Of a DNA stretch of 64,000 nt, positions 17,433 through 58,648 are shown in pieces. The stretch spans positions 96,001-160,000 of the forward strand of contig CAVXJS010000011.1 in NCBI GenBank assembly GCA_963762145.1, given 5' to 3'. The stretch comes from an uncultured Candidatus Rokubacteria bacterium. GTDB lineage: Bacteria; Methylomirabilota; Methylomirabilia; Rokubacteriales; CSP1-6. A program made the position numbers and the translations under genes. The notes under the pieces were generated by a model. The model ran no database searches. It was not told the DNA's origin and saw only the letters and a list, made by a program, of their open reading frames with translations. Positions within the stretch are counted from its first letter, which is position 1; every line of letters starts with the position of its first letter.

Positions 17433-17519
17433 CCATCGAGCATGACACGCTCGGGAATTTCTCCGCTTCGCGCGCTGCCGGCGTGGCGTTCCCTCGCCCC
17501 CATGTGGCATACTTTGCGC

Positions 17520-21282: not shown

Positions 21283-21861
21283 ATGGGCGACAACGTGATC
21301 CTGGTGGGCTTCATGGGGGCGGGCAAGTCGTCGGTGGGGCGGCTCCTCGCTCGCCGGCTCGGCCGGTGCTTCGTGGAGACCGACGACATGATCACGGCCC
21401 AGGAGGGCCGCTCGATCCCGGACATCTTCGCGGAGCGGGGCGAGGCCCACTTCCGCGCCCTGGAGGAGGAGACGGTGCGGCTGCTCGCGCTGAAGTCGGG
21501 CGACGTGATCGCCACCGGCGGGGGCCTGCCCTGCCGCGACGGGCGCCCCGAGACGCTCCGGGCCATGGGCACCGTGGTGTGGCTCCGCGGCGAGTTCGAC
21601 GCGGTGTACGAGCGGGCGCAGCGCGCGGGCGCGCGGCCGATGCTGGCCGGGCGCGGGCGCGACGAGATCGAGGCGCTCTATCGGGCGCGCGAGCCCTACT
21701 ATCGCCAGGCCGACCTCTCGGTGGACACCACCGGCATCAATCCCGACCAGGTCGTGGCCAAGCTCCTGCTCCTCCTGCGCTATCGCAACGCCGCCACCCT
21801 CTCTCCTCTGGACAAGCCCGGCTCCCTCTCCCCTCTGGGGAAGGGGCAGGGTGAGGGGTAG
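21283..21861 (+). CDS. aroK: Shikimate kinase
   Basis: GFMGAGKS, GEAHFR..E, ATGGG, RPML. Confidence 0.94.
   Translation: MGDNVILVGFMGAGKSSVGRLLARRLGRCFVETDDMITAQEGRSIPDIFAERGEAHFRALEEETVRLLALKSGDVIATGGGLPCRDGRPETLRAMGTVVWLRGEFDAVYERAQRAGARPMLAGRGRDEIEALYRAREPYYRQADLSVDTTGINPDQVVAKLLLLLRYRNAATLSPLDKPGSLSPLGKGQGEG
21824..21858 (-). repeat. REP-like palindromic element, copy 2 (inside the aroK 3' end)
   Basis: Reverse complement CCCCTCACCCTGCCCCTTCCCCAGAGGGGAGAGGG shares the first 15 and last 10 nt with the copy at 5516-5550. Confidence 0.72.
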
Positions 21862-21871
21862 TCGTACCGCG

Positions 21872-23722
21872 ATGCCCTCGCCCCTGCTCACCCGCCTCGC
21901 CGAGCGCCCGCTCCTCTGCGACGGGGCCATGGGCACGCTGCTGTACGCCCGCGGCGTCGCGCTCGACGCCTGCTTCGACGTGCTCAACCTCAACGAGCCC
22001 AAGCTCGTGCAGGCGGTCCACGCGGAGTACATCGCGGCGGGCTGCGACGCCATCGAGACGAATACCTTCGGAGCCAACCGCTTCAAGCTCGGCGTCCACG
22101 GCCTGCAGGCGCGCGTGCGGGAGATCAACCTGCGCGGCGCCAAGCTGGCGCGCGACGTGCGCGAGAGCATGGGGCGCGACGTGATGGTCCTGGGCTCGAT
22201 CGGCCCCCTCGGCAAGTACCTGGCCCCACTCGGCAGCGTCGAGCCGGCGGACGCGCGGGCCGCGTTCCACGAGCAGGCGGAGGGGCTCCTGGAAGGCGGC
22301 ATCGACGCGTTCGTGATCGAGACCTTCTCGGACCTCACCGAGATGCGCCTGGCCGTCGAGGCGGTGCGCGCTCTCACCGACCTGCCGATCCTCGCCGAGG
22401 TCGCGTTCACCGACGAGGGCGTGACCTTCACCGGGCGCGCCGCGGCCGAGGTCGTCCGCACCCTGCGGGAGCTGCCGATCCAGGCGGTGGGGGCCAACTG
22501 CTCGGTCGGCTCCAGCGTGCTCTTCGACATCCTGGAGCAGATGGTGCCGGAGGCGGGCGGCCTCCACGTGGCCATCCAGCCGAACGCGGGGCTGCCGAGC
22601 CGGGTGGGAGAGCGGCTGATGTACCTCTCCTCGCCGATCTACATGGCGGACTACGCGGCGCGGATGATCGCGAGCGGCGCGCGCCTTGTCGGCGGCTGCT
22701 GCGGGACGACACCCCAGCACATTCGCGCGATGCGGGAGGCGCTCGACCGGCTGGTGCCCCAGCGCAGCGCCGCCCGGGTCGAGCCGGTCCGTCGTGCCCG
22801 GGTGGAGATCGCCGAGCCCTCCGGCCTCGCCACCAGCGCGCCGCCCACCCTGCTGCAGCGCCGCCTCGACGCGGGGGAGTTCCTCGTCACGGTCGAGCTG
22901 GATCCGCCGCGCGGACACAACATCGAGAAGCTCGTGCAGGGGGCGAAGCTCCTCAAGGAGCGCGGCGTCGAGATCGTGGACATCAACGACGGCTCGCTGG
23001 GCCGCGTGCGGATGTCGGTCCTGCCCACCGCGATGCTGGTGCGGGACGCGACCGGGCTCGACATCAACATGCACTTCACCTGCCGCGATCGGAACCTGAT
23101 GGGCATCCAGGCGGATCTCCTCGGCGCCCACGCGATGGACATCCGCAACATCCTGGCCATGACCGGCGATCCCCCGCGGACCGGCGACTACGTCAACGCC
23201 ACCGCGGTGTTCGACGTGGACGCGATCGGCCTCATCCGGATCCTCGCCGAGATGAACCGCGGCCTCGACGCTACCGGCACCTCGATCGGCGAGCCCACCT
23301 CGTTCAGCGTGGGGGTGGCCCTCAACCCGGCGAGCGAGGAGCCGGCGCGCGAGATGGAGCGCTTCCTCGCCAAGGTCGAGGCGGGGGCCCGCTGGGTACA
23401 GACGCAGCCCATCTACGATCTGGACGTGCTCGATCGGTTCTTCGCGCGGACCCGCTCGCCGATTCCCCTCGTCGTCGGCATCATGCCGCTCCACTCGTCA
23501 CGCCACGCCGAGTTCCTGCACAACGAGGTGCCGGGCATCACGGTGCCCGACCCGGTGCGGGCGCGGATGCGGGAGGCGGGCGAGCGCGGGCTCCGCGCCG
23601 GCATCGAGATGGCCCAGGGCCTCCTGCGCGACCTGCGCAGCCGCCACCACGCCGGCGTCTACCTGATGCCGTCCTTCGGCCGCTTCGAGGTCGTGGCTGA
23701 GGTCCTGGACGCGCTGCACTGA
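21872..23722 (+). CDS. yitJ: Bifunctional homocysteine S-methyltransferase/5,10-methylenetetrahydrofolate reductase
   Basis: N-terminal DGAMGT, ANCS, GGCCG; C-terminal VELDPP, HFTCRDRN, TGDPP, TQPIYD. Confidence 0.92.
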   Translation: MPSPLLTRLAERPLLCDGAMGTLLYARGVALDACFDVLNLNEPKLVQAVHAEYIAAGCDAIETNTFGANRFKLGVHGLQARVREINLRGAKLARDVRESMGRDVMVLGSIGPLGKYLAPLGSVEPADARAAFHEQAEGLLEGGIDAFVIETFSDLTEMRLAVEAVRALTDLPILAEVAFTDEGVTFTGRAAAEVVRTLRELPIQAVGANCSVGSSVLFDILEQMVPEAGGLHVAIQPNAGLPSRVGERLMYLSSPIYMADYAARMIASGARLVGGCCGTTPQHIRAMREALDRLVPQRSAARVEPVRRARVEIAEPSGLATSAPPTLLQRRLDAGEFLVTVELDPPRGHNIEKLVQGAKLLKERGVEIVDINDGSLGRVRMSVLPTAMLVRDATGLDINMHFTCRDRNLMGIQADLLGAHAMDIRNILAMTGDPPRTGDYVNATAVFDVDAIGLIRILAEMNRGLDATGTSIGEPTSFSVGVALNPASEEPAREMERFLAKVEAGARWVQTQPIYDLDVLDRFFARTRSPIPLVVGIMPLHSSRHAEFLHNEVPGITVPDPVRARMREAGERGLRAGIEMAQGLLRDLRSRHHAGVYLMPSFGRFEVVAEVLDALH

Positions 23723-32781: not shown

Positions 32782-34623
32782 CTAGAGGATCTTCTCGTAG
32801 CGCCCGTGCTCGTGGGCGGCGTCCATGAACCACTTGACGATCTCGGGACTCGAGCGCGGCGGGATCTCGCAGGACGTCGACAGGATGAAGCCCGAGTGCT
32901 TGGCCGCGGTATCGATGCACCGGCGCACCTCGGCGTCCATCTGGGCCTGGGTGGCCTTCTCGAACATGGTCGCGTCCACGTTGCCGATGGCCACCGCGCG
33001 CCCCTTGGCAACCTGCATGAACCGCTCGAGCTGGTCCACGTGCAGCGCCGGGTCCGACTGCTGGTCCAGGTCGAACGAGATCGTGGTGAAGCCGCAGCCG
33101 ATCAGGTCCTCGAAGATCGGGTAGGTGACCCCGCAGATGTGGGTGGTGACGCCCACCTTCTTGGCCTTGAAGTGATCCACCAGCTCCTTGTGATAGGGCG
33201 CGATGAACTCTCGGTAGTTGTCCGGGGAGACGAGGCTGATGGAGGCGGTCGGCTCGGAGAAGGAGAGCCCGATCTTGGTCTTCACGATCGCGTCACCCCA
33301 GAGCTTGCAGAAGTCGGTGGTCAGCCGCATCACGTCGTGGATGAACTGGGGGTCCTCGAAGGTGTCGAGCAGCATCATCTCCGGGTTGCGGAGCAGCATC
33401 GCGATCGTCCACGGCCCCACCGCGACCGCCCCGGTGGCCGCGGGCGGCGCCGCCTTCACGAGCGCCTCGCACTGCTCGAGGAAGCCGGGGAGCCGCGCGG
33501 TCTTGTACGGATCGGGCATCCGGAGCTTGGCCAGGTCCGCCTTGTCCTCGAGCAGGTGGGTCTCGATCGAGGGCACCACGTAGTCGGAGTACTTGACGCC
33601 GCAGCCGAAGGCCTCCGCCTCCTTGGAGAGATCGTTGTACGCGAGCACTACGTCCGGCTGGTAGCGCTCGTAGTAATTCATCATCGCGCTGATGGCCTTC
33701 GTGGGGTTGGTGCAGTATTCCTCGATGCTGAGCCCGTCGAGCGTGCCCGCGAACGAGGCCACGATCGGGTACACCGGCACCCGGTCCGAGAAGGAGCGCT
33801 TGTAGGCCGCCACCACCCGATCGCGGTTGGTCAGGCTGGTCCTGCCGGCCTCGGCGTCCCACAGCTTGTTCACTTCCATGTAGCGCGGGGGCAGCTTGGC
33901 CTCGTACTCCATGAACTGGGTGATCGGATAGCGGATGCCCCCGTTGTGGGTGCCCCGCAGGCCCTCCACGATCTCCTCCATTCGCGCCCACGGAATCGAG
34001 AACGCCATCTCGTGATCCTGGGTCTGGCCGAAGATGCGGTCGCCCGAGCAGGGGAGGATCACCTGCGGCTCGCCGGTCTGCATGGTCGTGACCACGATGT
34101 CGGCGCAGACCGCGCGGCCCTCGAAGGAGGATGTGAGCCGGCCGCCTCGCTTCCAGAGCGCGGCCTGGGTCAGGCGCATCACCTGGGCGGGGTTGGCGTA
34201 GACGCAGACGACGTGCGGCTCGAAGGTGGCGCGGTCGAGCGGGGCGACCAGCAGGCAGTGATACTCGCCGGGCGCGAACTTGTCGATGGCGGCCTCGGAG
34301 CGCTGGCCCGCGGCCTTGGTCTCGGTGTACATGCCCTCGCACAGCGAGCCCACGTTGTAGATGGGCAGCGGCTTGTCGAAGCCGATCGCGGTGATGCCGA
34401 GCGAGCAGATGTGGTCCTCGCGGGTGAGCGCGATGGTCCAGCCGTAGCGCCGGGACATGTCGATGACCTGGCAGCTCATGGAGAGCTTCTTGAAGTCGCG
34501 GGCGGGCCGGCGCGCGCGCTCCGGGATCGGCTCGCCCGCCTTGAGCATGCGGATCGCCACCGGGAACGTCTGCGGACGCAGGTACGTCTGCAGCTCCTGG
34601 TCCGCCGTCTTCACGTCGATCAT
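32782..34623 (-). CDS. DUF169 domain fused to a URO-D/MtaA-CmuA-type corrinoid methyltransferase domain
   Basis: N-terminal PVAI, SCQ, HICSLG, ANPAQVMRL, LPCSGDRIF (DUF169-like). C-terminal EAEAFGC, GPWTIA, EPTAS..SP, HICG, GNVD, STSCEIP. SD AAGGAG before ATG 34623. Confidence 0.82.
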   Translation of the reverse strand: MIDVKTADQELQTYLRPQTFPVAIRMLKAGEPIPERARRPARDFKKLSMSCQVIDMSRRYGWTIALTREDHICSLGITAIGFDKPLPIYNVGSLCEGMYTETKAAGQRSEAAIDKFAPGEYHCLLVAPLDRATFEPHVVCVYANPAQVMRLTQAALWKRGGRLTSSFEGRAVCADIVVTTMQTGEPQVILPCSGDRIFGQTQDHEMAFSIPWARMEEIVEGLRGTHNGGIRYPITQFMEYEAKLPPRYMEVNKLWDAEAGRTSLTNRDRVVAAYKRSFSDRVPVYPIVASFAGTLDGLSIEEYCTNPTKAISAMMNYYERYQPDVVLAYNDLSKEAEAFGCGVKYSDYVVPSIETHLLEDKADLAKLRMPDPYKTARLPGFLEQCEALVKAAPPAATGAVAVGPWTIAMLLRNPEMMLLDTFEDPQFIHDVMRLTTDFCKLWGDAIVKTKIGLSFSEPTASISLVSPDNYREFIAPYHKELVDHFKAKKVGVTTHICGVTYPIFEDLIGCGFTTISFDLDQQSDPALHVDQLERFMQVAKGRAVAIGNVDATMFEKATQAQMDAEVRRCIDTAAKHSGFILSTSCEIPPRSSPEIVKWFMDAAHEHGRYEKIL

Positions 34624-34707
34624 GGGTGTCTCCTTGTCACGGAGGCTACGGGGGGCCCTCCGGGTTGTCAAGGGAAGGGCGCCCGCTTCCGCTACAATAT
34701 CGCCGCG

Positions 34708-34998
34708 ATGGCGCGATACCGCATCATCCAGTGGCGCGATCTCCCCTCGCTGGTGGAGGCGATGGACGGTGACCACACCGCCCGCGTCCCGCTCTCCCAG
34801 CGCTTCCAGGACCTGATCGACGCCCTGGCCATGCGCGAGGGCGCCACCGAGAGCGAGGCCTACCTGGAAGGCTGGGCCCCGGGCCCCGAGATGGAGCGCC
34901 CGGGCGACGCGGAGACGGTCGCTCGTGAGGTCGCCGCCGACCTGGAGGACGGTTTCCAGGACCTGGTCACGCGCCGCTTTCTCGGCCCGCCTCGTTAG
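34708..34998 (+). CDS. PF13769 ('Virulence_fact')-like small protein
   Basis: WRDLPS.V, LSQRFQDLID.LAM, AYLEGW. Confidence 0.75.
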   Translation: MARYRIIQWRDLPSLVEAMDGDHTARVPLSQRFQDLIDALAMREGATESEAYLEGWAPGPEMERPGDAETVAREVAADLEDGFQDLVTRRFLGPPR

Positions 34999-35013
34999 GT
35001 TCGTGCGCTTCGA

Positions 35014-35081
35014 GCGCCGGCTTCGCCGGCGCAATCCCGTTGTGGGGGAGGTTCGGAGGGGGCCGTCTAGGCCCCCTCCGA
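35014..35081. repeat. Double-hairpin intergenic element (REP-like or terminator)
   Basis: GCGCCGGC-TTC-GCCGGCGC (35014-35032) and TCGGAGGGGGCC-GTCTA-GGCCCCCTCCGA (35053-35081). Confidence 0.55.
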
Positions 35082-35103
35082 TGCGCTATACTTCCGCCAG
35101 CCA

Positions 35104-35307
35104 ATGAAGGTCGCGGAGCTGCTGGTCGCCTGCTTCCTGCTGTTCGGGGCGTGCCTCGTGTGGCCCCTGCTCGCCATCGCCAACCACCCCGTCCTGATCC
35201 TGGGGGTGCCGGCCCTGGTGCTCTACCTCTTCGCGGTCTGGGCCGCCATGGTCGGGGTCCTGATCACGCTGGCCCGGCGCCCCCGGGCGCCCGAGGACGA
35301 GTCGTGA
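35104..35307 (+). CDS. Small 2-TM membrane protein, probable partner of the SSS histidine kinase
   Basis: Two hydrophobic helices joined by ILGVP; GTGA overlap with the downstream kinase. Confidence 0.75.
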   Translation: MKVAELLVACFLLFGACLVWPLLAIANHPVLILGVPALVLYLFAVWAAMVGVLITLARRPRAPEDES

Positions 35308-38300
35308 GCGGCCTGTCGCCCACCGCGCTCCTCTCGATCGTCCTCGGCTACCTGGCCTTCCTGTTCCTGGTCGCGTCGGTGGCGGAGGCCTTCGCGCCCC
35401 GCCTTGCCCGGGGCCGGGCCGCCACGCTGATCTACGTGCTCGCCGCGTCGGTCTACTGCACCGCGTGGACCTTCTACGGCAGCGTGGGCCTGGCCGCCAA
35501 CCGGGGCCTCGAGTTCCTGACGATCTACCTGGGGCCCGCCTGCGTGGCGCTCCTGTGGCCGGTGCTGCTGCGCAAGCTCGTGCGGGTCTCCAAGGAGCAG
35601 CGCATCACCTCGGTCTCCGACTTCATCTCGAGTCGCTACGGCAAGTCGGCGTCCCTGGGCACACTCGTGGCGGTCCTCGTGGTGTGCGGGATGATTCCCT
35701 ACATCGCGCTGCAGCTGAAGGCGGTGTCGGCGTCGTTCCGGATGATCCTCCGGGACGAGGCGGTGCTCGAGGTCTTCGACCCGACCCTGGTGGTGGCGGT
35801 GACCCTCGCCCTCTTCGGCATCCTGTTCGGGGCGCGCAACCTCGACTTCACCAAGCGGCAGACCGGCCTCATGACCGCGGTGGCGGTGGAGTCGGTGGTG
35901 AAGCTGCTCGCGTTCCTCCTGGTCGGGGTCTACGTGACGTGGGGGCTCTTCGGGGGGTTCGCCGATCTCTTCGGCCAGGTGGCGCGGAATCCGGAGCTGT
36001 CGCGTCTCCTCACGCTCGACCAGGCGGGCACCGCGTCCTATGCGCGCTGGACCGCGATGCTGGTGATCTCGATGCTGGCCGTGATGTTCCTGCCGCGGCA
36101 GTTCCACGTGCTGGTCGTGCAGAACCAGCGCGAGCGCGACGTCAACGCGGTCTCCTGGTCCTTCCCGCTCTACCTGTTCCTGATCAACATCTTCGTGCTG
36201 CCGATCGCCTTCGCCGGCCTCCTCGTCTTCCCGGAGGCGGGCGCGCAGGCCGACGGCTTCATCCTCCGGCTGCCGCTGTCCTTCGACAGCCAGCTCATCT
36301 CGGTGATCGTGTTCCTGGGCGGCTTCTCGGCGGCCACCGCGATGATCGTGGTGGACTCCCTCGCCCTGTCCAAGATGATCACCAACGACATCATCCTGCC
36401 GATGCTGCTGCGCCGCCGCCGCATGGAGGACATCTACTGGATCACCCTCTTCTACACGCGGCTCGCCATGCTGGCGGTGGTGGCGCTGGGCTTCGCGTGG
36501 GCGCGGATGGAGCACGGCCAGCTGCTGCTGGTGGAGATGGGGCTGCTCTCCTTCATCGCGGTGGCCCAGTGCGCGCCCGCCATCCTCCTCGGGCTCTACT
36601 GGCGGCGCGGCAACCGCCGGGGCGCCTACGCGGGGATCTCGGGCGGCTTCTTCGTGTGGTTCTACACGCTCATCCTCCCGGCCCTGGGCAAGGAGGAGAT
36701 CCTCGGTCAGTCGTTCCTGTCGAACGGGCCGCTGGGGCTGTGGCTGCTGCGGCCCACCGCGTTCCTGGGGCTCGAGGGACTCGATACCATCAGCCACGGC
36801 GTCTTCTGGTCCTTCTTCTTCAACGTGGGGCTCTTCGTGGTGGTGTCGCTGCTCACCGAGCAGGACGCGGACGACCGGGCCCAGGCCGCCGCCTTCGTGG
36901 GGGTCGCGATGGAGGACAAGCCCGCTCCGGGGGCGCCCGCGATCCTATCCGCGCCCGAGATCGAGCGGCTCGTGCATCACTACGTGGGCGACGAGGACGC
37001 GGAGGCCATCGTGCGCGAGCTGTTCGGGGCCAAGGCGCCCGCTGATCTTTCGGTGCCCGAGCTGCTCGAGATGCGCATCCGCTTCGAGCGGCTTCTCGCC
37101 GCCTCGCTGGGCGCGGCGGCCGCGCGCATCATCGTGGAGGACCACTTCACGATCTCCAAGGAAGAGGCCCAGCAGCTCGTCACGTCCTTCCAGCACATGC
37201 AGCAGTCGCTGCGGGTCACCGAGGAGGAGGTCAAGCGCGGGGAGCGGCTACTGGCCTCGGTGGTCGAGAGCGTGGACGACTGCATCTTCACCGCCGACAC
37301 CACCGGGCGGCTCGTCACCATGAACCCGGCCGGCCGCCGGCTGCTCGGCTACGAGCTCTTCGAAGTGAGTCGCCTCCGCTACCCGGATCTGCTCGCCTCG
37401 GACGTGCGAGGCGGCGCCGGCGGCATCGTGGCCGCGCTCGAGGTCGGCCGTGGCTGGAGCGGGCAGGTGACGGGCCGCCGCGGCCGGGGTGACGTCTTCC
37501 CGGCTCACCTGGCCCTGACCGCCCTCTTCGACGACCGCGGCCAGCGCATGGGCACGGTGGGCGTGCTCCACGACCTCACCGAGCAGGTGGAGACGCAGCG
37601 GCGGCTCATCCACCGCGAGAAGCTCGCCTCGCTCGGCGAGATGGCGGCGGGGGTCGCCCACGAGATCCGCAATCCGTTGGGCGGGATCAAGATGGCCACC
37701 AACCTGCTGTCCTCCCCGGAGGTGGACGGCAGCCCCCTGTCGCAGGAGATGGCCCGATCCATCCTGTCCGGCATCGGCGAGATCGAGGGCATCATCAACA
37801 ACCTCCTCGACTGGACGCGGGACGCGCGGCTCGAGCGGAACGAATACGAGCTGGCGAGGATCCTCGACCCGGTGGTGGAGGCGGTGGCGGGCGAGGGGCG
37901 GGCCCGGGGCGTCCAGGTCGGCTTCGGACGGCTCGAGCGCGAGGTGGTCGCGGCGGTGGACGGGCAGAAGCTCCGTCAGGTGTTCACCAACGTCCTGAAG
38001 AACGCGGTGGAGTCGATCGACCCGCACCGCGGCGCCGGACGCGTCAGCGTGGAGCTCTTCGCGGAGGGTGACCGGGCGGTGGTCGAGGTCGTGGACGACG
38101 GCGTCGGGATCGCTCCGGAGGACCGCGACAAGATCTTCCTGCCCTTCTTCACCACCAAGCCCTCCGGCACGGGCCTCGGCATGTCCATCGTCAAGAAGAT
38201 CGTGGACCTCCACGCGGGGGACATCGCGATCGAGAGCGCGCCGGGCCGCGGCACGCGGGTTCGCATCTCATTCCCGGCGGTGGGCGCGGCCCAGCCGGTG

Positions 38301-38318
38301 GCTGGAGGCAATCCATGA
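35304..38318 (+). CDS. Sodium:solute symporter-STAC-PAS histidine kinase (CrbS/CbrA family)
   Basis: VYCTAWTFYGSVG, SDFISSRYGKS, PYIALQLKA, LPRQFH, FSAATAM; ERLLAASLGAAAAR (STAC-like); PAS; AHEIRNP; FFTTKPSGTGLG. Confidence 0.93.
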   Translation: MSGLSPTALLSIVLGYLAFLFLVASVAEAFAPRLARGRAATLIYVLAASVYCTAWTFYGSVGLAANRGLEFLTIYLGPACVALLWPVLLRKLVRVSKEQRITSVSDFISSRYGKSASLGTLVAVLVVCGMIPYIALQLKAVSASFRMILRDEAVLEVFDPTLVVAVTLALFGILFGARNLDFTKRQTGLMTAVAVESVVKLLAFLLVGVYVTWGLFGGFADLFGQVARNPELSRLLTLDQAGTASYARWTAMLVISMLAVMFLPRQFHVLVVQNQRERDVNAVSWSFPLYLFLINIFVLPIAFAGLLVFPEAGAQADGFILRLPLSFDSQLISVIVFLGGFSAATAMIVVDSLALSKMITNDIILPMLLRRRRMEDIYWITLFYTRLAMLAVVALGFAWARMEHGQLLLVEMGLLSFIAVAQCAPAILLGLYWRRGNRRGAYAGISGGFFVWFYTLILPALGKEEILGQSFLSNGPLGLWLLRPTAFLGLEGLDTISHGVFWSFFFNVGLFVVVSLLTEQDADDRAQAAAFVGVAMEDKPAPGAPAILSAPEIERLVHHYVGDEDAEAIVRELFGAKAPADLSVPELLEMRIRFERLLAASLGAAAARIIVEDHFTISKEEAQQLVTSFQHMQQSLRVTEEEVKRGERLLASVVESVDDCIFTADTTGRLVTMNPAGRRLLGYELFEVSRLRYPDLLASDVRGGAGGIVAALEVGRGWSGQVTGRRGRGDVFPAHLALTALFDDRGQRMGTVGVLHDLTEQVETQRRLIHREKLASLGEMAAGVAHEIRNPLGGIKMATNLLSSPEVDGSPLSQEMARSILSGIGEIEGIINNLLDWTRDARLERNEYELARILDPVVEAVAGEGRARGVQVGFGRLEREVVAAVDGQKLRQVFTNVLKNAVESIDPHRGAGRVSVELFAEGDRAVVEVVDDGVGIAPEDRDKIFLPFFTTKPSGTGLGMSIVKKIVDLHAGDIAIESAPGRGTRVRISFPAVGAAQPVAGGNP

Positions 38319-39700
38319 AGCGACGGCTCCTGCTGGTCGAGGACGACGAGGTCTTTCTCCGCCCGCTGCACCGCACGCTCGAGCTGAAAGGCTACGAGGT
38401 GGTGCCGGTCCACAGCGCGGAGGAGGCACTCGACTCCCTCAAGACCGAGGACGTGGACGTGGTGCTCACCGACCGCCGGCTGCCCGGGATGGACGGCGTC
38501 GAGCTGGTGCGGCAGATCAAGGTGGAGCATCCGGACCTCGCGGTGGTGGTCATGACCGCCTACGGCACCATCGAGTCGGCGGTCGAGGCGATGCGACTCG
38601 GGGCCGAGGACTACCTGGTGAAGCCCTTCGAGGCGGCCGAGCTGCTGCTGGTGATCCGGCGGGCCATCGAGTTCCAGGAGCTGAAGTCGGCGAACCGCCG
38701 GACGATCCGGCGCAATCAGGAGCGCTTCACGTTCGGCAACATCGTGGCGGCCAGCGCGGGCATGCAGGCGGTATTCGACCTGCTGCGCTCGGTGGTGGAT
38801 CTGGACACCACCGTGCTCATCCATGGGGAGACCGGCGTCGGCAAGGAGCTGCTCGCGCGCTCCATCCACTTCTCGGGGGCCCGGCGCGACCGGCCCTTCG
38901 TGGCGGTCAACTGCGCGGCCATTCCCGCCGAGCTGTTCGAGTCCGAGCTGTTCGGCTCCCGGCGAGGCGCCTTCACCGGCGCCACCGAGCACCGGCGCGG
39001 CCACTTCCAGATGGCCCACGGGGGAACCCTGCTCCTCGACGAGATCGGGGAGATGCCGTTGCATCTGCAGAGCAAGCTGCTGCGCGCGCTCGAGGAGAAG
39101 AAGGTGACCTCGGTGGGGGCGGACCGCTCGGTGGAGGTGGACGTGCGCTTCATCGCCACCACCAACAAGGACCTGCAGGTGGAGGTGGAGCACGGGGCCT
39201 TCCGCCGCGACCTGTTCTACCGGCTCTCGGTGATGCCGGTGCGGGTGCCCCCGCTGCGCGAGCGCCCGGAAGACATCCCGCTGCTCGCCCGGCACTTCGT
39301 GGAGCAGGCGAGCCGCCGCATCAAGAAGGCGGTCCGCGACATCGCGCCCGAGAGCCTCGGAGCCCTGATGCGATACCCGTGGCCCGGCAACGTGCGCGAG
39401 CTGGAAAACGTGATCGAGCGGGCGGTCATCGTATCCACCGCCCACGTTCTCGCGGACCTCGAGCGCTTTCTCGCGCCGACCGGCGCTCACGCGCCAGTGG
39501 ATCTGTCGCTGCCCTTCCGGGACGCCAAGGCCCGGGTGGTGGAGGACTTCGAGCGCGCCTACATCGAGGGCCTGCTCAAGAGCCACGGGGGCAAGCTCAC
39601 CGCGGCGGCCAAGCACGCGGACATGGATCCCAAGAATTTCTCCGACAAGATCCAGCGCTACGGCCTGCGCCGCTCCGCGCCGGAGCCGCCTCCCGCCTAG
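38315..39700 (+). CDS. Sigma-54-dependent response regulator (CbrB/NtrC-like)
   Basis: Receiver domain, GETGVGKE, GAFTGA, WPGNVREL. ATGA overlap with the kinase. Confidence 0.95.
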   Translation: MKRRLLLVEDDEVFLRPLHRTLELKGYEVVPVHSAEEALDSLKTEDVDVVLTDRRLPGMDGVELVRQIKVEHPDLAVVVMTAYGTIESAVEAMRLGAEDYLVKPFEAAELLLVIRRAIEFQELKSANRRTIRRNQERFTFGNIVAASAGMQAVFDLLRSVVDLDTTVLIHGETGVGKELLARSIHFSGARRDRPFVAVNCAAIPAELFESELFGSRRGAFTGATEHRRGHFQMAHGGTLLLDEIGEMPLHLQSKLLRALEEKKVTSVGADRSVEVDVRFIATTNKDLQVEVEHGAFRRDLFYRLSVMPVRVPPLRERPEDIPLLARHFVEQASRRIKKAVRDIAPESLGALMRYPWPGNVRELENVIERAVIVSTAHVLADLERFLAPTGAHAPVDLSLPFRDAKARVVEDFERAYIEGLLKSHGGKLTAAAKHADMDPKNFSDKIQRYGLRRSAPEPPPA

Positions 39701-40931
39701 AAGAAGAGGATGGTCACGATCGCGAAGAGCGGCAGCAGCACCGCGCCGCTGTAGGCCATGTACCCGAAGAAGCTCGGCATGCGCACGCCCGCCGCATCCG
39801 CGATGGCCTTCACCATGAAGTTGGGGGCGTTGCCGATATAGGTGTTGGCTCCCATCGCCACCGCGCCCACGCTGATCGCGGTCAGGATCACGTGCGGCAC
39901 TCCGACCACCTCCGCGGGCAATCCGAGGCTCTGGGCCAGCGCGAGGAACGTGAGGTAGGTCGGCGCGTTGTCGAGGAACGACGAGAGCACGCCGGTGGCC
40001 CAGAAGAACTGCCAGGGCTCCCGCACGCCGAGCTCCCCCCGCGCACGTGGAGCAGCTCGAGGGCGGGGATCATGGTGAGGAAGATCCCGAGGAAGAGCAC
40101 CGCCACCTCCACCATCGGACCCGCGGTGAAGTGGTTCGCCCGGCGAATCGCGCTCGGCGTCCGCCAGAGCGAAACGCCGGCCAGGACCAGGATGGCGAGC
40201 TCGCGCACCGGCGCGTGGAGGAAGGCCACCGCAGCCACCACACCCGCGAGCCAGACCCCGTTGAGCGTGCCGCGGATCCGGAGCGGCTCGATCTGGACGT
40301 GGTCGCGCCGGCGTGCCGCTTTCGTCTCGCGCGAAAGCTCGCGCGAGTCCCAGACGTAGTACAGCAGCAGCAGCGCCGCGGTCATGGTGAGCCAGGGCCC
40401 CCACAGCCGCAGGGTCCAGGCGAACGGGACTCCTTGCAGGTACCCGAGGAAGAGCGGTGGGTCGCCCAGCGGGGTGAGCATCCCGCCGATGTTGGAGACG
40501 AGGAAGATGAAGAACACCACGGTGTGCGTCACCCGCGCCCGCTCCCGGTTCGTCTGCAGCAGTGGCCGGATCAGGAGCATCGAGGCGCCGGTGGTGCCCA
40601 CGAGGGAGGCGAGCAGGGTGCCGGTGGCGAGGAAGGCGGTGTTCACGAGCGGGGTCGCCTCCAGGTCGCCGGTGAGGCGGACGCCGCCCGCGACCACGTA
40701 GAGCCCGCCGAGCAGGATGATGAACGAGACGTAGTCGGCCGCCATGTGGACGAGCGCGCCTGGTTGCCGGGCCAGGTAGAGGACCAGCACCGGCGCTCCC
40801 AGGACCACCGCCACCACCAGCTTGCTCCGGTTGGACTCCCACCAGTGCGGCAGCCACAGGGGGAAGAGGGCGATGGTGAGCAGCATCGCGACGAAGGGCA
40901 GCACGGTGTAGAGCGGCAGCGCGGTCGGCAC
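39697..40931 (-). pseudogene. Ion-transporter superfamily Na+/H+ antiporter (CitMHS_2/NhaD-like), frameshifted
   Basis: N-terminal part SNIGGMLTPLGDPPLFLG in one frame; C-terminal part SSFLDNAPTY and TYIGNAPN in another. The frames switch at a G6 tract (40035-40040). Confidence 0.85.
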
Positions 40932-41027
40932 TCGGTGATGTTACTCCCTTGAAGTTGCCGGGCGGATGGTTTAGAAGGGGAGCGGCGCGGCGACGCGCCG
41001 ATCCTCACCCGAGAACGAGGTCCCCCA

Positions 41028-42977
41028 ATGGCCAGCGAGACCAAAGGCAGCAGCGCCGTCGAAGCTCTCCTGAAAGAGAAGCGGAGGTTTCCGCCGCCGA
41101 AGGAGTTCGTCAAGCACGCCAACGTCAAGAGCGCGTCGGTCTACAAGGAGGCGGCCAAGAATCCGGCCCGCTTCTGGGAGCGCTTCGCCAAGGAGCTCGA
41201 CTGGTTCAAGCCGTGGAAGACGGTCGTGCAGTGGAAGGCGCCCCACGCCAAGTGGTTCGTGGGCGGCAAGCTGAACGTGGCCTACAACTGCCTCGATCGC
41301 CACGTGGCCACCGCGCGCAAGACGAAGGCCGCCATCATCTGGGAGGGCGAGCCGGGCGACACGCGGGTGCTGACCTACTGGGACCTCTACCGCGAGGTCA
41401 ACCGCTTCGCGGCCGCGCTCAAGCGGCGCGGGGTCAAGAAGGGCGACCGGGTCACCATCTACATGCCGATGGTGCCGGAGCTGCCGATCGCGATGCTGGC
41501 CTGCGCCCGCATCGGGGCCCCGCACAGCGTGATCTTCGGCGGGTTCGCCCCCGAGGCGGTGCGCGACCGCATTCACGACGCGGAGTCCACCGTGCTCATC
41601 ACCGCCGACGGCGGCTTCCGGCGGGGCGGCACGGTGGCGCTCAAGAAGAACGTGGACGAGGCGCTCCGGGAGTGCCCCGACGTGAGCACCGTCATCGTGC
41701 TCAAGCGCACGCGGCAGGACATCGACATGCAGGCCGGGCGCGACGTCTGGTGGGACGACTTCGTCAAGGACGCGCCCGCCTACTGCGCGCCCGAGAAGAT
41801 GGACTCCGAGGACATGCTGTACCTGCTCTACACCTCGGGCTCCACCGGCAAGCCGAAGGGCATCGTGCACACCACCGGCGGCTATCTCACCGGGGTCTAC
41901 GCGACCACCAAGTGGATCTTCGACCTGCACGACACCGACGTGTACTGGTGCACCGCCGACATTGGCTGGGTCACCGGCCACTCCTACATCGTCTACGGGC
42001 CACTCGCGAACGGGACCACCACCGTGATGTACGAGGGCACGCCGGACTACCCGGACAAGGACCGGTTCTGGCGGATCGTCGAGAAGTACGGCGTCACCAT
42101 CTGCTACACCGCGCCCACCGCCATCCGCACCTTCATGCGCTGGGGCGAGGAGTATCCGAAGCGCTGCGATCTCTCGAGCCTCCGCCTGCTCGGATCGGTC
42201 GGGGAGCCGATCAACCCGGAGGCGTGGGTCTGGTACTGGAAGGTCATCGGGGGCGGCCGCTGCCCGGTGGTGGACACCTGGTGGCAGACCGAGACCGGCC
42301 ACATCCTGATCAGCCCGCTGCCCGGCATCACCACGCTCAAGCCCGGCTCGGCCACCCGCCCGTTCCCCGGCATCGAGGCCGACGTGGTCAACGACAAGGG
42401 GGAATCGGCCAAGGCCGGCTACCTCGTGCTCAAGAAGCCGTGGCCGGGCATGCTGCGCGGCATCTACCGCGACCCGCAGCGCTTCGTCGCCCAGTACTGG
42501 AGCAAGTATCCGGGCATCTACTTCACGGGCGACGGCGCCAAGATCGACGAGGACGGCTACTTCTGGCTGCTCGGCCGAGTGGACGACGTCATGAACATCT
42601 CGGGTCACCGCGTGTCCACCATGGAGGTGGAGTCGGCGCTGGTGGACCACCCGCACGTGGCGGAAGCCGCGGTGATCGGCCGGCCCCACGAGATCAAGGG
42701 GCAGGCCATCGCGGCCTTCGTGACCATCAAGGACGGCACCAAACCGTCCAAGGAGCTGATGGAGGAGATCAAGGGGCACGTGACCAAGAAGATCGGAGCG
42801 CTGGCGCGGCCCGACGACCTGATCTTCGCGGCCGACCTGCCCAAGACTCGCTCCGGCAAGATCATGCGCCGCCTGCTGCGCGACATCGCCGAGGGCAAGG
42901 CGCTGGGGGACACGACCACCCTGGCCGACCCTGCCGTCGTCGCCACCCTCAAGGAGAAGTACGGCGAGGAGGAGTAG
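41028..42977 (+). CDS. acs: Acetyl-CoA synthetase (AMP-forming)
   Basis: [36 protein letters not shown]. Confidence 0.98.
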
Positions 42978-42993
42978 GGGCCGCGCGACGCCC

Positions 42994-43033
42994 CTTGGTA
43001 ACGGTGCCAAGATCACTTGGTGCCGCTACCAAG
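42994..43033. promoter_or_regulatory. Tandem palindromes CTTGG-N8-CCAAG (candidate enhancer; could also fold as the acs 3' hairpin)
   Basis: Two 18-bp dyads at 42994-43011 and 43016-43033, 22 bp apart, upstream of a -24/-12 promoter. Confidence 0.55.
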
Positions 43034-43093
43034 AAGGGCCCATGGAGACAGAGACTTCGCTCGTCGAATCGCGCACTTGGAAAGGGGCTCGCC

Positions 43094-43109
43094 TGGCACC
43101 GTTCGTGCT
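43094..43109 (+). promoter_or_regulatory. Candidate sigma-54 promoter
   Basis: TGGCAC-CGTTC-GTGCT (GG-N10-GC). Confidence 0.6.
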
Positions 43110-43124
43110 GCTCCGGGCGGACCA

Positions 43125-43439
43125 ATGCGCTACCGGCGAATCGCCTTCATGGTTGCGTTGTACGTGACGGTCGACCTCACGAACCCGTTCATCGGGTGCG
43201 CGTTCAATTTCAGCCCAGAGGAGTCGATCGACGGTCTATCGCGCTCCGATGAGCGGCTCCTCCCGCAGGAGGCCCCGGCGGTGCTGCCGACGCCCCCCGG
43301 TGGGGACAACCACGCCCGAATCGCGCGCCTCGCTCCCACCTGGCGGTTCACGGCCCGCGTGCTGGGCGGGTGGCTCGCGCAGATGAGACAGGGGCACGCG
43401 CCGAATTCCGATCCGCAGTCGTCGACCGAAGATCACTAG
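43125..43439 (+). CDS. Hypothetical protein
   Basis: ATG just downstream of the sigma-54 site and an N-terminal hydrophobic stretch. Codon usage is atypical and no family was recognised. Confidence 0.4.
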   Translation: MRYRRIAFMVALYVTVDLTNPFIGCAFNFSPEESIDGLSRSDERLLPQEAPAVLPTPPGGDNHARIARLAPTWRFTARVLGGWLAQMRQGHAPNSDPQSSTEDH

Positions 43440-43539
43440 CGGCGCCCGCCGCACAGGTGTCCGTGGTCGTTCCCGTGCCCGCCGGCGATCGGCGTGCGCG
43501 TGGCCGGGTGATTCGAACCATCTCTCAGGAGGGGATCCA

Positions 43540-43809
43540 ATGGCGGATCTGACCGACAAACAGAAGGACGCGTACTGGCGGTTCAACGTCAAGCTCACCA
43601 CGATCCTGCTGGTCATCTGGTTCGTGGTGACGTATCTGATCTCCGGGCTGTGGGCGGGCTGGCTGAACCAGTACTCGGTCCTCGGCTTCCCGATGGGGTA
43701 TTACATGGCGGCCCAGGGCTCGCTCGCGATCTTCGTCATCGAGATCGCGGTGTACGCCTACCTCATGAATCGCAAGGACCAGGAGTACGGCATTCGCGAG
43801 GAGGCCTAG
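43540..43809 (+). CDS. DUF4212 family small subunit of a solute:sodium symporter
   Basis: AYWR.N, LGFPMGYYMAAQGS; SD AGGAGG. Confidence 0.9.
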   Translation: MADLTDKQKDAYWRFNVKLTTILLVIWFVVTYLISGLWAGWLNQYSVLGFPMGYYMAAQGSLAIFVIEIAVYAYLMNRKDQEYGIREEA

Positions 43810-43812
43810 CGC

Positions 43813-45735
43813 ATGAGCCTGGACAAGATCTTCGGTCTCTACACCGTCTCGTTCCTCGCCGTGACGATCCTTATCGGCATCGGCGAGCTGGCCTTCGGTC
43901 TGCCCAACCGGTGGATCGGCTGGATCTTCATGGCCCTGTCCCTCGCCATCTACATCGTCATCGGCGTGGTCACCCGCACGTCGAACCCGGACCAGTACTA
44001 CGTGGCCGGGCGCGGGGTGCCCGCCTTGTACAACGGCATGGCCACCGGCTCCGACTGGATGTCGGCGGCTTCCTTCATCTCGATGGGTGGTGCCCTGTCC
44101 GCCCAGGGCTTCGCCGGGCTGGCGTACGTCATGGGCTGGACCGGCGGTTACCTGCTGCTGGCGGTGTTTCTCGGCCCGTACCTGCGCCAGTTCGGCGCCT
44201 ACACGATTCCCGACTTCCTCAGCGCCCGCTACGGCGGCACGTCCGCCCGTCTCATCGGGGTCGTCGCGGCGGTCGCCTGTTCCTTCACGTATCTGATCGC
44301 GCAGGTCACCGGCGTCGGCCTGATCGTCTCGCGCTTCATCGGCCTCGACTTCAACGTGGGCGTCTTCGTCGGCCTGCTGGGCGTGCTGTTCTGCTCGGTG
44401 CTGGGCGGAATGCGCTCGGTCACGTGGACCCAGGTCGCGCAGTACATCATCCTGATCATCTCCTACCTGGTCCCGGTCGTGTATCTCTCGTGGCAGCTCT
44501 TCTCGATCCCGATCCCCGAGCTGACCTACGGTCGCGTCCTGCAGCAGAACAACAGCAAGGCCATCGAGATCACGCGCGACGCGAAGGAGAAAGAGACGCG
44601 CGCGCTCTGGAAGAAGGACGCGGACGAGGTCAACGCCAAGATCAAGGCGGGCGGCCTGCCCGAGGCCGAGATCGACAAGCTGAAGGCGCAGGCGGCCCTA
44701 TCGGGTCGGCAGGCAACCGCGCCGGCGGCCAGCGACGACGCCACGATCAGCCGGTATCTCACGGTGCCCTCCGGCGTCGGGATGTGGAACTTCCTGGCCC
44801 TCACGTTCTGCCTGATGGTGGGCACCGCGGGCCTGCCGCACATCCTGACCCGCTACTACACCACGCCTTCGGTACGCCAGGCGCGCACCTCGGTGGCGTG
44901 GTCGCTGTTCTTCATCTTCCTGCTGTACTTCACCGCCCCGGCCTACGCGGCCTTCGCGCGCTTCACGATCTACGCCAAGCTGGTCGGCACCAAGGTCGCG
45001 GAGCTACCACGCTGGGTCACGCTCTGGCAGCCCGCCGGTCTCTTCGACGTGGTGGACAAGAACGGGGACGGCATCGTGCAGTGGGCCGACTTCGTGATCA
45101 AGAGCACCGACTTCGTGGTGCTGGCCATGCCCGAGATCGCGGGCCTGCCCTTCGTGATCACCGGGCTCGTCATGGCGGGCGGTCTCGCGGCCGCGCTGTC
45201 CACCGCGGATGGGCTGCTGCTCACGATCGCCAATGCCATCTCGCACGACCTTTACTACAACGTCATCGATCCGAGCGCCTCGCTCACCAAGCGGCTCACC
45301 ATCACCAAGGTGCTCCTGGTGGTGACCGCGATCATCGCGGCCTGGGTGGCCACGTTCCGCCTGTCCCTGATCGTGGAGCTCGTGGCCTGGGCCTTCAGCC
45401 TGGCCGGCGCATCGTTCTTCCCCGCGCTCGTCATGGGGATCTGGTGGAAGCGGGCCAACAAGGCGGGGGCGGTGGCGGGCATGGTCCTCGGCCTCGGCAT
45501 CACGACCTACTACATGATCGGCAGCCGGTTCTACGGCCTCTCCTGGTTCGGCACGCAGACCATCGCGTCGGCCATCTTCGGCCTGCCGGCCGGGTTCCTC
45601 ACCATCTGGATCGTCTCGCTCCTCACCGCGCCGCCGCCCAAGGCGGTGCAGGACCTCGTGGTCAGTGTCCGGTATCCGAAGTCCGGTCAAGGGACCGCGC
45701 TGTCGGCCCAGGGCATCGGGCTCGGCCGGCACTGA
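43813..45735 (+). CDS. actP: Cation/acetate symporter (ActP-like, VC_2705 subfamily SSS)
   Basis: YYVAGR, NGMAT..DWMSAASF, GTAGLPHIL.RYYT, AAALSTA.GLLL. Follows acs and DUF4212. Confidence 0.88.
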   Translation: MSLDKIFGLYTVSFLAVTILIGIGELAFGLPNRWIGWIFMALSLAIYIVIGVVTRTSNPDQYYVAGRGVPALYNGMATGSDWMSAASFISMGGALSAQGFAGLAYVMGWTGGYLLLAVFLGPYLRQFGAYTIPDFLSARYGGTSARLIGVVAAVACSFTYLIAQVTGVGLIVSRFIGLDFNVGVFVGLLGVLFCSVLGGMRSVTWTQVAQYIILIISYLVPVVYLSWQLFSIPIPELTYGRVLQQNNSKAIEITRDAKEKETRALWKKDADEVNAKIKAGGLPEAEIDKLKAQAALSGRQATAPAASDDATISRYLTVPSGVGMWNFLALTFCLMVGTAGLPHILTRYYTTPSVRQARTSVAWSLFFIFLLYFTAPAYAAFARFTIYAKLVGTKVAELPRWVTLWQPAGLFDVVDKNGDGIVQWADFVIKSTDFVVLAMPEIAGLPFVITGLVMAGGLAAALSTADGLLLTIANAISHDLYYNVIDPSASLTKRLTITKVLLVVTAIIAAWVATFRLSLIVELVAWAFSLAGASFFPALVMGIWWKRANKAGAVAGMVLGLGITTYYMIGSRFYGLSWFGTQTIASAIFGLPAGFLTIWIVSLLTAPPPKAVQDLVVSVRYPKSGQGTALSAQGIGLGRH

Positions 45736-58393: not shown

Positions 58394-58433
58394 GGGCGGT
58401 TGCGCTCACCGCACCCCTCTGTTACGGTCTGCC

Positions 58434-58613
58434 CGTCCATGGTGTCCGGGCGGCCCGCCGGGTGCGGGCCCCAGGGAAGGCGGTGCGAATCCGCCGCGAC
58501 CCCGTCACTGTAATCGGGTACGAAACCCGCGATCGGCCACTGCTCCGGCCCCAGCCGGATCGGGAAGGCGCGGGGAGTAGGACGATCCGAAAGCCAGGAG
58601 ACCTGCCCGGACG
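58434..58613 (+). promoter_or_regulatory. Cobalamin riboswitch 1 (upstream of cobU)
   Basis: GGTG...AGGGAA-ggcGGTGCGAATCCgcc...CACTGTAA...GCCACTG...GGGAAGGC...AGCCAGGAGACCTGCC. A hairpin at 58627-58646 sequesters the SD. Confidence 0.93.
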
Positions 58614-58648
58614 CTGCCACCCGCGCCGGTCCTCGAGGGAGGACCGAG

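Follow-up and report, generated by a model that had tools for sequence, protein, structure and literature searches.

What might be the function of a protein in which a DUF169 module and a methyltransferase-like domain of the uroporphyrinogen decarboxylase (URO-D) fold are joined in a single polypeptide? The question is raised by a gene located in a 64,000-nucleotide stretch of DNA from an uncultured Candidatus Rokubacteria bacterium (G000:C11:96001-160000, hereafter the window, to which all positions given without a contig refer), part of a genome of 6.26 Mb in 25 contigs, estimated as 88% complete. In open-access PMC papers and bioRxiv, no literature was found on the DUF169-URO-D fusion, on the function of DUF169 or on PF13769, the family of a neighboring gene. 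What is new here is that the fusion is linked to a conserved trio of genes, for an MtbC/MtgC-type corrinoid protein, a homocysteine S-methyltransferase and a MetH-type reactivation protein. Our leading interpretation, held tentatively and at somewhat less than even confidence, is that the fusion may be an MtsA-like zinc methyltransferase that would take methyl groups from a methyl-sulfur or methyl-selenium donor and load them on the corrinoid protein, in the service of methionine synthesis.

The fusion gene occupies positions 32782-34623 of the minus strand and encodes a protein of 613 amino acids (P0001) plus a stop codon, an extent supported by the open reading frame (ORF) and its translation, by matches to both Pfam domains and by full-length orthologs. 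The enclosing minus-strand ORF, as called, spans 32782-35034, with the ATG at 34621-34623, and a Shine-Dalgarno sequence, AAGGAG, can be read from the sequence at 34630-34635, 6 nt 5' of this ATG. Scans for promoters and terminators produced nothing useful close to the gene, in a window whose GC content ranges from 0.66 to 0.77. The DUF169 module (residues 1-262; 33838-34623), delimited by Pfam, alignment and an AlphaFold2 model, matches PF02596 over residues 11-221 (E 3.6e-60, 203.8 bits against a cut-off of 27, profile positions 2-209 of 209), and the MtaA-like methyltransferase domain of the URO-D fold (residues 265-606; 32806-33831), assigned through Pfam, NCBIfam and a profile comparison with PDB, matches PF01208 over its entire length (E 1.7e-60, 205.4 bits against a cut-off of 23.9, profile positions 1-346 of 346). 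With E values up to 0.01 allowed, Pfam recognizes just these two domains in the 613 residues, a B12-binding domain not being among them. Stand-alone homologs of the two halves measure approximately 260 and 340 amino acids, respectively, and since the halves match these lengths, the junction near residue 262 represents a clean end-to-end fusion, almost free of a linker. The original prediction, made from the letters of the DNA, had described a single ORF of 613 amino acids with a DUF169-like and a URO-D half and with the motifs HICG and STSCE, and Pfam and the alignment agree with it; its own reservation, that the N-terminal half may not be DUF169 at all, is contradicted by the 203.8-bit match to PF02596. 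The range it assigned to this observation, 32782-34998, holds two genes, and the fusion stops at 34623.

By sequence comparison, the C-terminal half is closest to the methylcobamide:coenzyme M (CoM) methyltransferase MtaA, and it is not HemE. As a single sequence searched against PDB, the domain retrieves MtaA (4ay7) at the top, with an E value of 5.9e-14, the best UroD following at 1.5e-6, and a profile built from the domain and 21 stand-alone relatives scores 187 bits with 4ay7, 105.8 bits with the best UroD, and 73.8 bits with the chloromethane enzyme CdmB. HICG (His495 and Cys497) and STSCE (Cys585) align with HICG and GC of 4ay7, predicting a zinc site whose H-x-C part is encoded at 33133-33141 (His495-Ile496-Cys497) and whose third ligand, Cys585, is encoded at 32869-32871, both on the minus strand. 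This H-x-C...C triad is retained in 8 of 9 fused proteins and in all 21 stand-alone relatives aligned, the exception being P0128, whose C-terminal end seems to be out of frame. The stand-alone MtaA-like proteins are 35-43% identical to the domain of the fusion. With NCBIfam models, the fusion scores 120.9 bits for MtaA/CmuA (TIGR01463; cut-off 235.4), 97 for the MtaA equivalog (cut-off 400), 90.1 for the MtbA equivalog (cut-off 600) and 110.9, also below the cut-off, for methylcobalamin:CoM methyltransferase, and is thus a relative of the family rather than a member by NCBI's rule. For the hemE equivalog (TIGR01464), whose cut-off is 302.95, the score is 38.2 bits, and a true hemE, with 427.7 bits on PF01208, is found elsewhere in the genome (C21:504215-505216), its product having neither Cys of the triad. 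The claim that the H-x-C...C pattern is of the MtaA type and not of the HemE type is upheld by the 4ay7 alignment, NCBIfam and the PDB profile, and the outcome that would have spoken against it, an actual uroporphyrinogen decarboxylase, is at odds with both the hemE score and the separate hemE. According to Kountz and Balskus (PMC10418091), His-Cys-Cys in the UroD superfamily marks S- or Se-methyltransferases, one or both Cys being exchanged in O-demethylases. The same superfamily includes, as described in PMC13222342, enzymes acting on the donor side (MT1) with methoxy-aromatics or haloalkanes, of which some have no zinc.

As to the distribution of the fusion, a search of a collection of 5.8 billion proteins, with a domain check on the best 120 matches, found both Pfam domains in all 120, each at least 82% identical; Candidatus Rokubacteria and 'MtaA/CmuA family methyltransferase' are among the names that their sources carry. 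In a species-level genome collection, 210 stretches encode a relative, and all of the 80 retained as loci encode the fusion itself, at 79-96% identity, nearly all of these being metagenome-assembled genomes of Rokubacteria/Methylomirabilota. Of these loci, 78 span fusion residues 1-4 to 607-613, and the remaining two (L028, residues 1-569; L079, residues 101-613) are cut by the ends of the stored DNA. The median identity over the 80 species loci is 83%, the same as for the neighboring acetyl-CoA synthetase, indicative of purifying selection acting on the fusion. Within the phylum, the fusion query matches 203 of 251 genomes at E up to 1e-20, with 152/158 in f1, the family of the window, 21/21 in f2, 5/6 in f10, 10/21 in f7, 5/15 in f8 and 0/20 in f13; in such tallies the query also picks up stand-alone DUF169 or URO-D genes, and the 251 genomes include four unpublished ones, on which no claim depends. 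At the level of 50% identity, full-length fused representatives number just three (P0122, P0125 and P0128), and so the fusion is clade-specific and not spread across bacteria. The earlier concern that it could be an artefact of a single genome is ruled out by the 120 two-domain matches, the 80 loci and the near-complete presence in f1.

The proposed partners are encoded on the plus strand at 18.9-23.7 kb. The first gene (18890-19555; Pfam, NCBIfam) encodes a corrinoid protein of 221 amino acids with B12-binding_2 and B12-binding domains and a D-x-H-x-x-G motif, GDLHDIG being invariant in the alignment, and it is proposed to be the methyl carrier. With NCBIfam scores of 213.8 bits for TIGR02370 (cut-off 215.3), 212.8 for MtgC, 208.5 for MtbC and 130.7 for metH, it scores like the cognate carriers of methylotrophic methyltransferases, well above the B12 part of MetH. 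The second gene (19552-20499; Pfam, NCBIfam), located after the corrinoid gene in every one of 14 loci, encodes a protein with the homocysteine S-methyltransferase domain PF02574, the candidate for the step from methyl-corrinoid to homocysteine. The third (20496-21266) encodes a 256-residue protein with a MetH-type reactivation domain, binding S-adenosylmethionine (SAM), as judged from PF02965 (the MetH activation domain), matched by 12/12 orthologs, and from a profile match to PDB 1j6r (E 2.3e-8), an entry named 'methionine synthase', which we take to be the separate reactivation protein of Thermotoga. The three genes are consecutive in 12 of 14 loci, including two families with the corrinoid protein only 75-76% identical, and, judging from the domains, the trio in effect amounts to MetH minus its methyl-tetrahydrofolate (methyl-THF) module. 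A bifunctional homocysteine S-methyltransferase/methylenetetrahydrofolate reductase gene (21851-23722; Pfam, NCBIfam; PRK08645, 692 bits) comes next on the same strand; its orthologs (74-81% identical) are present in 5 of 12 related f1/f2 loci, and it is not a constant neighbor of the trio. The reactivation protein ends in C223-x2-C226-x4-C231, invariant in 12/12 aligned orthologs, which may represent a metal or cluster site; we know of no such Cys motif in the MetH activation domain. Upstream, an ORF for a protein with an MBL fold and two rhodanese domains (17031-18893, plus strand) overlaps the start of the corrinoid gene (18890) by 4 nt. Its NCBIfam matches, 92 bits to GloB and 63 bits to the Blh sulfurtransferase/dioxygenase, are weak and under the cut-offs, and of 12 related f1/f2 loci, 4 have this ORF ahead of the trio; a sulfur-handling gene in this position would fit a methyl-sulfur donor, which we offer as a lead only.

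How does this trio relate to methionine synthesis as a whole? The canonical metH of this genome is broken over several frames (G000:C16, approximately 88,000-92,200; L171:3094-7105, minus strand), with partial matches to S-methyl_trans (45-257), Pterin_bind (1-92), B12-binding (2-50) and pieces of Met_synt_B12, representing either a pseudogene or a poorly assembled stretch. An intact metH, with a full-profile Pterin_bind match and a frame of at least 1000 amino acids, is found in 28 of 41 genomes sampled in the family (two of the 28 are unpublished). As most relatives hold a full metH, the trio must be an additional system rather than the sole methionine synthase, and its presence alongside metH fits a donor other than methyl-THF. 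In the 88%-complete genome, the Pterin_bind matches are limited to folP and the broken metH fragment, with no free pterin-binding methyltransferase, and no MttB-family gene was found. One Pterin_bind match, C11:170524, was considered as the lacking donor enzyme and rejected, being folP (190.3 bits for DHPS, between ftsH and cdaA/glmM). Separately, the genome has an unusually large set of paralogs, seventeen in all, that match Meth_synt_2 (the catalytic domain of MetE, or 'core MetE'). The highest score, 117.7 bits, is that of C19:206772-207752, and the set may include folate-independent methionine synthases.

The evidence connecting the fusion to the trio includes position and distribution. 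In terms of position, among 123 genomes in which both the fusion and the corrinoid ortholog are listed (unpublished genomes excluded), the two genes share a contig in 69, and in all 69 they lie within 54 kb of each other, in 64 within 20.5 kb, with a median of 13.8 kb; in the window the distance is 13.9 kb, start to start. In G012, whose fusion is 64% identical to that of the window, the fusion gene is convergent with and adjoins the trio, at 2.7 kb start to start, and in G043 the gap between fusion and corrinoid gene is 5.7 kb, the two fusions being 64-65% identical to that of the window. In G020, the ortholog of the homocysteine methyltransferase is located 2.2 kb from the fusion. In terms of distribution, the corrinoid ortholog is found in 149/158 genomes of f1, 20/21 of f2, 5/6 of f10, 0/15 of f8 and 0/20 of f13, thus closely following the fusion query (152 versus 149 in f1, 21 versus 20 in f2, 5 versus 5 in f10, 0 versus 0 in f13). 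In f8, where the corrinoid ortholog is missing, five of the 15 genomes match the fusion query, and in the two that were checked (G033 and G035) the match is to a DUF169 half only. In f7, close corrinoid orthologs (E up to 1e-99) occur in G003, G004, G005, G012, G015 and G022, and intact fusions in G003, G006, G012, G015 and G022, the match in G004 being truncated at a contig end. In two further genomes, G010 and G018, a close corrinoid ortholog is missing and a DUF169-only gene has been kept, with no URO-D remnant nearby. In G020, also without a close corrinoid ortholog, the fusion gene is frameshifted (L192:7437-9534 on G020:C5) near residue 295, in the URO-D domain, which may reflect either decay of the gene or, in an assembly of 7 contigs, an erroneous indel; the presence of the two halves in different frames was considered as a natural split, of value as Rosetta-stone evidence, and this was rejected, as the frameshift is inside the URO-D domain.

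When the DUF169 modules of 26 rows are placed in a maximum-likelihood tree, the 12 fused rows and those of G010 and G018 form one clade (support 97/99), with the two stand-alone rows nested inside it (inner nodes 88/82 and 92/93) and the stand-alone DUF169 genes of f8 and f11 outside. The simplest history compatible with this tree would be a single fusion event followed by a single loss of the URO-D half, in a lineage that also has no corrinoid ortholog. The genome encodes a second MtaA-like URO-D protein with the triad (C7:247768-248730, plus strand; 80 bits on PF01208 and 70 bits on methylcobalamin:CoM methyltransferase), adjoining amidohydrolase and GTPase genes. With orthologs at 62% identity or more in just 14 of 41 sampled f1 genomes, it is a poorer fit than the fusion to the distribution of the trio. 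Overall, the proposal that the fusion supplies the methyl-input enzyme missing from the genes at 18.9-23.7 kb gains real support from the 69 same-contig pairs, the near-adjacency in G012 and G043, the matching spread and the loss of the URO-D half where the corrinoid ortholog is missing, although this support is indirect.

If the fusion does act with the trio, the reaction sequence may be envisaged as follows. The zinc site of His495, Cys497 and Cys585 would activate a methyl-sulfur or methyl-selenium compound (a methylthiol, a thioether or a methylselenide), whose methyl group the URO-D barrel would deliver to the corrinoid protein (MtbC/MtgC-type) in its Co(I) form. From there, the PF02574 enzyme would move it to homocysteine, forming methionine, and the MetH-type reactivation protein would restore oxidized cobalamin. 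The result would be a four-part, folate-independent system, methionine-forming or methyl-scavenging, with the fusion as its missing donor-side (MT1) enzyme. The identities of the domains, the conserved triad, the broad conservation of the fusion, the composition of the trio, and the linkage and shared distribution of fusion and trio are shown; that the proteins act as physical partners, in which direction the methyl group moves and what donates it are what we infer. A precedent for a UroD-superfamily enzyme with His-Cys-Cys working in the loading direction is provided by MtsA, with dimethyl sulfide.

A number of observations weigh against such a role. The best-known bearers of the His-Cys-Cys triad are MT2 enzymes, which unload methyl-corrinoid onto a thiol, and the MT1 role rests on the MtsA precedent; moreover, the trio already includes an enzyme that unloads methyl-corrinoid onto a thiol. 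The fusion stays under the NCBIfam MtaA/CmuA cut-off (120.9 versus 235.4), and no corrinoid methyltransferase context is seen around the stand-alone DUF169 genes closest to it. The fusion gene is located outside the trio operon, with 11.5 kb of unrelated genes between them in the window (for an amidase, a sensor kinase, a sigma-54 regulator, a HAD-ATPase and an RRM protein). In 54 of the 123 genomes the two genes are on different contigs, and their distance cannot be judged. One genome, G005 (93% complete), has the corrinoid ortholog and no fusion match, and another, G006 (76% complete), has the fusion and a corrinoid match of just 3.2e-66. The full metH in 28 of 41 sampled relatives means that, by this evidence, the trio is not essential for methionine. 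Finally, the genomes compared are kin, so that linkage and co-distribution possibly reflect inherited synteny rather than selection, and none of the counts amounts to an independent statistical test.

The main rival to the loading role, one we consider unlikely but to be taken seriously, is an MT2-type enzyme that would methylate a thiol, sulfide or selenide from methyl-corrinoid, or methylate a Cys of its own DUF169 module, without feeding the homocysteine trio; its carrier could be this corrinoid protein, another one, or free cobalamin. Both the triad and the closest solved relative, MtaA, are of the MT2 type (PMC10418091), and the same paper describes a bacterial Mlp with the same triad that methylated selenide from methylcobalamin in vitro. 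Selenium is used by this organism, as deduced from two selD genes (C11:419505-420437 and C14:136744-137655), one with an in-frame TGA, likely for selenocysteine. The fusion is also transcribed apart from the trio, and the genome has 9 matches to B12-binding, so other carriers exist. What an MT2 role leaves unexplained is why the URO-D half tracks the corrinoid ortholog of the trio in both position and distribution, and it needs a further enzyme to load the corrinoid, for which neither an MttB nor a free pterin-binding methyltransferase was matched in the genome.

A rather improbable alternative keeps the fusion as the MT1 enzyme of the trio and changes the donor, to methoxy-aromatics from lignin or to chloromethane (cf. 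MtvB/OdmB/VdmB, CmuA and CdmB). It shares with the methyl-sulfur/selenium proposal all of the linkage evidence, the habitat is soil, with the stretch of the window present in soil metagenome runs, and the UroD superfamily does have O-demethylase and haloalkane MT1 enzymes, as stated in PMC13222342. However, O-demethylases exchange one or both Cys (PMC10418091), whereas here all three ligands are kept, CdmB is without zinc (PMC13222342), and the family profile scores 187 bits with MtaA versus 73.8 with CdmB.

We turn next to the DUF169 half. An AlphaFold2 model of this half, built from 46 sequences, is of high quality (predicted local distance difference test, pLDDT, 97.4; predicted template modeling score, pTM, 0.92), and Foldseek found no match for it in PDB at E up to 0.001; in a wider comparison with VIA-align the best Z is 4.7, mostly with thiolase-fold entries, inside the noise range of the tool. 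Among 46 aligned members of the DUF169 subfamily, Cys51, Cys73 and Cys173 are kept in at least 90%, and Gly81 and Arg196 are invariant. A URO-D gene is found within 8 kb in none of the 12 closest stand-alone DUF169 loci (from metagenomes, 49-55% identical). At the eight of these loci that were annotated, the neighbors include genes for Fur, Mrp/ApbC, a NUDIX protein and a TRAP transporter, as well as a methylmalonyl-CoA mutase operon. Within the phylum, stand-alone orthologs adjoin thiolase and CoA-transferase genes or a gene for a PduO-type adenosyltransferase, and the neighbors of the two DUF169 paralogs in this genome are acyl-CoA genes and one for a sulfatase. Atlas searches gave nothing beyond clusters of DUF169 or of PF13769. 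The few papers in which DUF169 appears offer context alone: DUF169 is linked to YedE by STRING (a table in PMC5322559), a DUF169 gene adjoins that of a TauE-like permease (PMC4001038), and others adjoin hgcAB or SepRS (10.1101/648329, PMC8762117). The DUF169 half has a function that is able to stand alone, and the general proposition of the original prediction, that the fusion ties DUF169 to corrinoid methyl transfer, is not supported: none of the 12 stand-alone loci has URO-D within 8 kb, and orthologous DUF169-only genes persist where the corrinoid ortholog is missing. Within the fusion, our guess is that DUF169 may bind a substrate or product containing sulfur or selenium, or pass it on, or else hold a metal or cluster. 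A more daring and more doubtful elaboration would have Rokubacteria, abundant as they are in soils, operate a four-part, folate-independent methionine synthase in which DUF169-MtaA strips the methyl groups of volatile sulfur or selenium compounds (methanethiol, dimethyl sulfide or methylselenides, for example) and loads the corrinoid protein with them, the MetH-like homocysteine module then making methionine. DUF169 would serve as a hitherto unrecognized cysteine-based domain that binds the released sulfide, selenide or thiol or passes it on.

These same observations can be turned toward a function without any corrinoid, set by DUF169 in acyl-CoA or in metal/Fe-S metabolism, the URO-D barrel being a decarboxylase-like or cofactor-free module for a non-porphyrin substrate. 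DUF169 genes do adjoin those for thiolase, CoA-transferases, acyl-CoA dehydrogenase, carboxylases, methylmalonyl-CoA mutase, Fur and Mrp/ApbC, the weak fold matches are mostly to the thiolase fold, and the Asp of 'NDL' in the fusion aligns with that of 'SDI' in UroD 4exq. However, fold matches with Z below 5 are within noise, acyl-CoA genes are abundant in these genomes anyway, the triad and the ranking of MtaA over UroD favor methyl transfer, and the linkage to the corrinoid trio would be left without explanation, so that we regard this possibility as quite improbable. A second uroporphyrinogen decarboxylase, a HemE paralog, may be suggested by the Pfam URO-D match spanning the full profile, but the hemE equivalog score far under its cut-off, the 427.7-bit hemE on another contig and the two Cys that HemE does not have make this very improbable.

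Returning to the surroundings of the fusion gene, its divergent neighbor, separated by 84 nt, encodes a 96-residue protein of PF13769, 'Virulence_fact' (34708-34998, plus strand; E 1.5e-11, 44.9 bits against a cut-off of 25), the single match to this family in the genome. It is adjacent and divergent in 25 of the 77 species loci with enough upstream DNA and absent from the others, and the 25 loci all fall in one sub-clade, with fusions 81-96% identical to that of the window, most of them at 87% or more. A search for longer proteins with PF13769 returned 6 over-extended ORFs only and no informative fusion. No evidence was seen for the presumed association of PF13769 with corrinoid or folate genes, and of the co-occurrences originally suggested as a check, that of the fusion with the corrinoid protein is seen, and that with PF13769 is limited to these 25 of 77 loci. 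Five distant fused loci (L166, L167, L168, L169 and L192, of G022, G006, G043, G012 and G020, respectively; fusions 64-67% identical) do not have the PF13769 gene, and their divergent upstream neighbor is a gene for Creatinase_N plus Peptidase_M24. A DddP-like role for this neighbor was considered and rejected, the scores being 31 bits for DddP and 124 for PepQ, both far under the cut-offs. Downstream, a gene for an RRM-type RNA-binding protein is convergent with the fusion gene in 51 of 69 loci. No evidence was seen that the PF13769, Creatinase_N/Peptidase_M24 or RRM neighbor works with the fusion. Further upstream, the region 35040-45735 encodes a sensor kinase of approximately 1090 amino acids (PAS, HisKA and HATPase_c, with an N-terminal membrane half without a Pfam match) and a sigma-54 response regulator, adjoining genes for acetyl-CoA synthetase and a DUF4212/sodium:solute symporter pair, and looks like an acetate uptake and activation regulon; 33 of the 80 loci have the sensor kinase gene upstream of the fusion. 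Far from the fusion, two cobalamin riboswitches, the sole Rfam matches (58431-58624, 92.1 bits, and 63045-63246, 78.7 bits, plus strand), flank genes for cobT-like (DBI_PRT) and btuF/C/D-like transporter proteins at 59.2-63.0 kb, an island for salvage and uptake of B12, as had been noted for the region in the original prediction.

How does the proposed system compare to those already described? The MtaA, MtbA and MtsA enzymes of methanogens share with the fusion a URO-D TIM barrel of approximately 340 amino acids and an aligned His-Cys-Cys, MtaA 4ay7 being the best solved match, and an MtbC/MtgC-type corrinoid protein is encoded in the neighborhood of the fusion. Unlike them, the fusion falls under the NCBIfam cut-offs, carries the 262-residue DUF169 module at its N-terminus and comes from a soil bacterium, and its proposed acceptor chain would end in homocysteine rather than CoM. 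The Mlp proteins of type 1 mlp clusters are likewise bacterial, MtaA-like and equipped with His-Cys-Cys, with methyl-sulfur or methyl-selenium substrates proposed, and these clusters, like the trio, are without a tetrahydrofolate methyltransferase (PMC10418091). Such clusters are defined by at least two mlp genes beside a corrinoid gene and a Ram/RACE activase, an arrangement that this locus does not have: kilobases separate the single fused gene from that of the corrinoid protein, the second MtaA-like gene is on another contig, and a MetH-type SAM reactivation domain and a homocysteine methyltransferase are encoded instead, no search having been aimed at Ram/RACE. The split methionine synthase MtgBCDE of marine Rhodobacterales also employs a separate corrinoid protein, MtgC, and homocysteine-binding MtgE, with alternative donor enzymes, and it uses pterin-binding MtgD, MttB-family MtgB and reactivation by RamA and DUF1638 (PMC12478193). 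In our case, by contrast, the reactivation protein is of the MetH type, the candidate donor enzyme belongs to the UroD superfamily, neither a pterin-binding partner nor MttB was found, and the separate pterin-binding methyl-THF:corrinoid methyltransferase typical of a split MetH was not found in the 88%-complete genome. In CmuA, too, a methyltransferase domain of the UroD superfamily is joined to a second domain, and NCBIfam lumps MtaA with CmuA; the partner there is a corrinoid-binding domain, CmuA acting as both 'MTI' and 'CP' (PMC13222342), while the partner here is DUF169 and the same polypeptide has no corrinoid-binding domain. Stand-alone DUF169 proteins (PF02596, COG2043) resemble the fusion in matching the profile over its full length and in the same three conserved Cys, and differ in their length of approximately 260 amino acids and their varied gene contexts. 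The fusion and the trio together would be a variant of the corrinoid-dependent multi-component methyltransferases.

If a loading role for the fusion is correct, a widespread uncultured phylum of soil bacteria would have a direct route to methionine from methylated compounds of sulfur or selenium, or from some other donor that is not a folate, tying trace-gas and organosulfur turnover to amino acid synthesis, and the partners of MetH-like modules would extend past the pterin-binding and MttB-type enzymes of marine bacteria. DUF169, an old and widespread family, would gain a concrete biochemical setting and a testable set of partners, and, should its role with sulfide, selenide or thiol prove true, this would be its first function. 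All of the genes involved can be cloned and assayed with methylcobalamin chemistry. Even if the proposal is wrong, the fusion, with a median identity of 83% over 80 species loci, is still among the most conserved unassigned genes of its clade.

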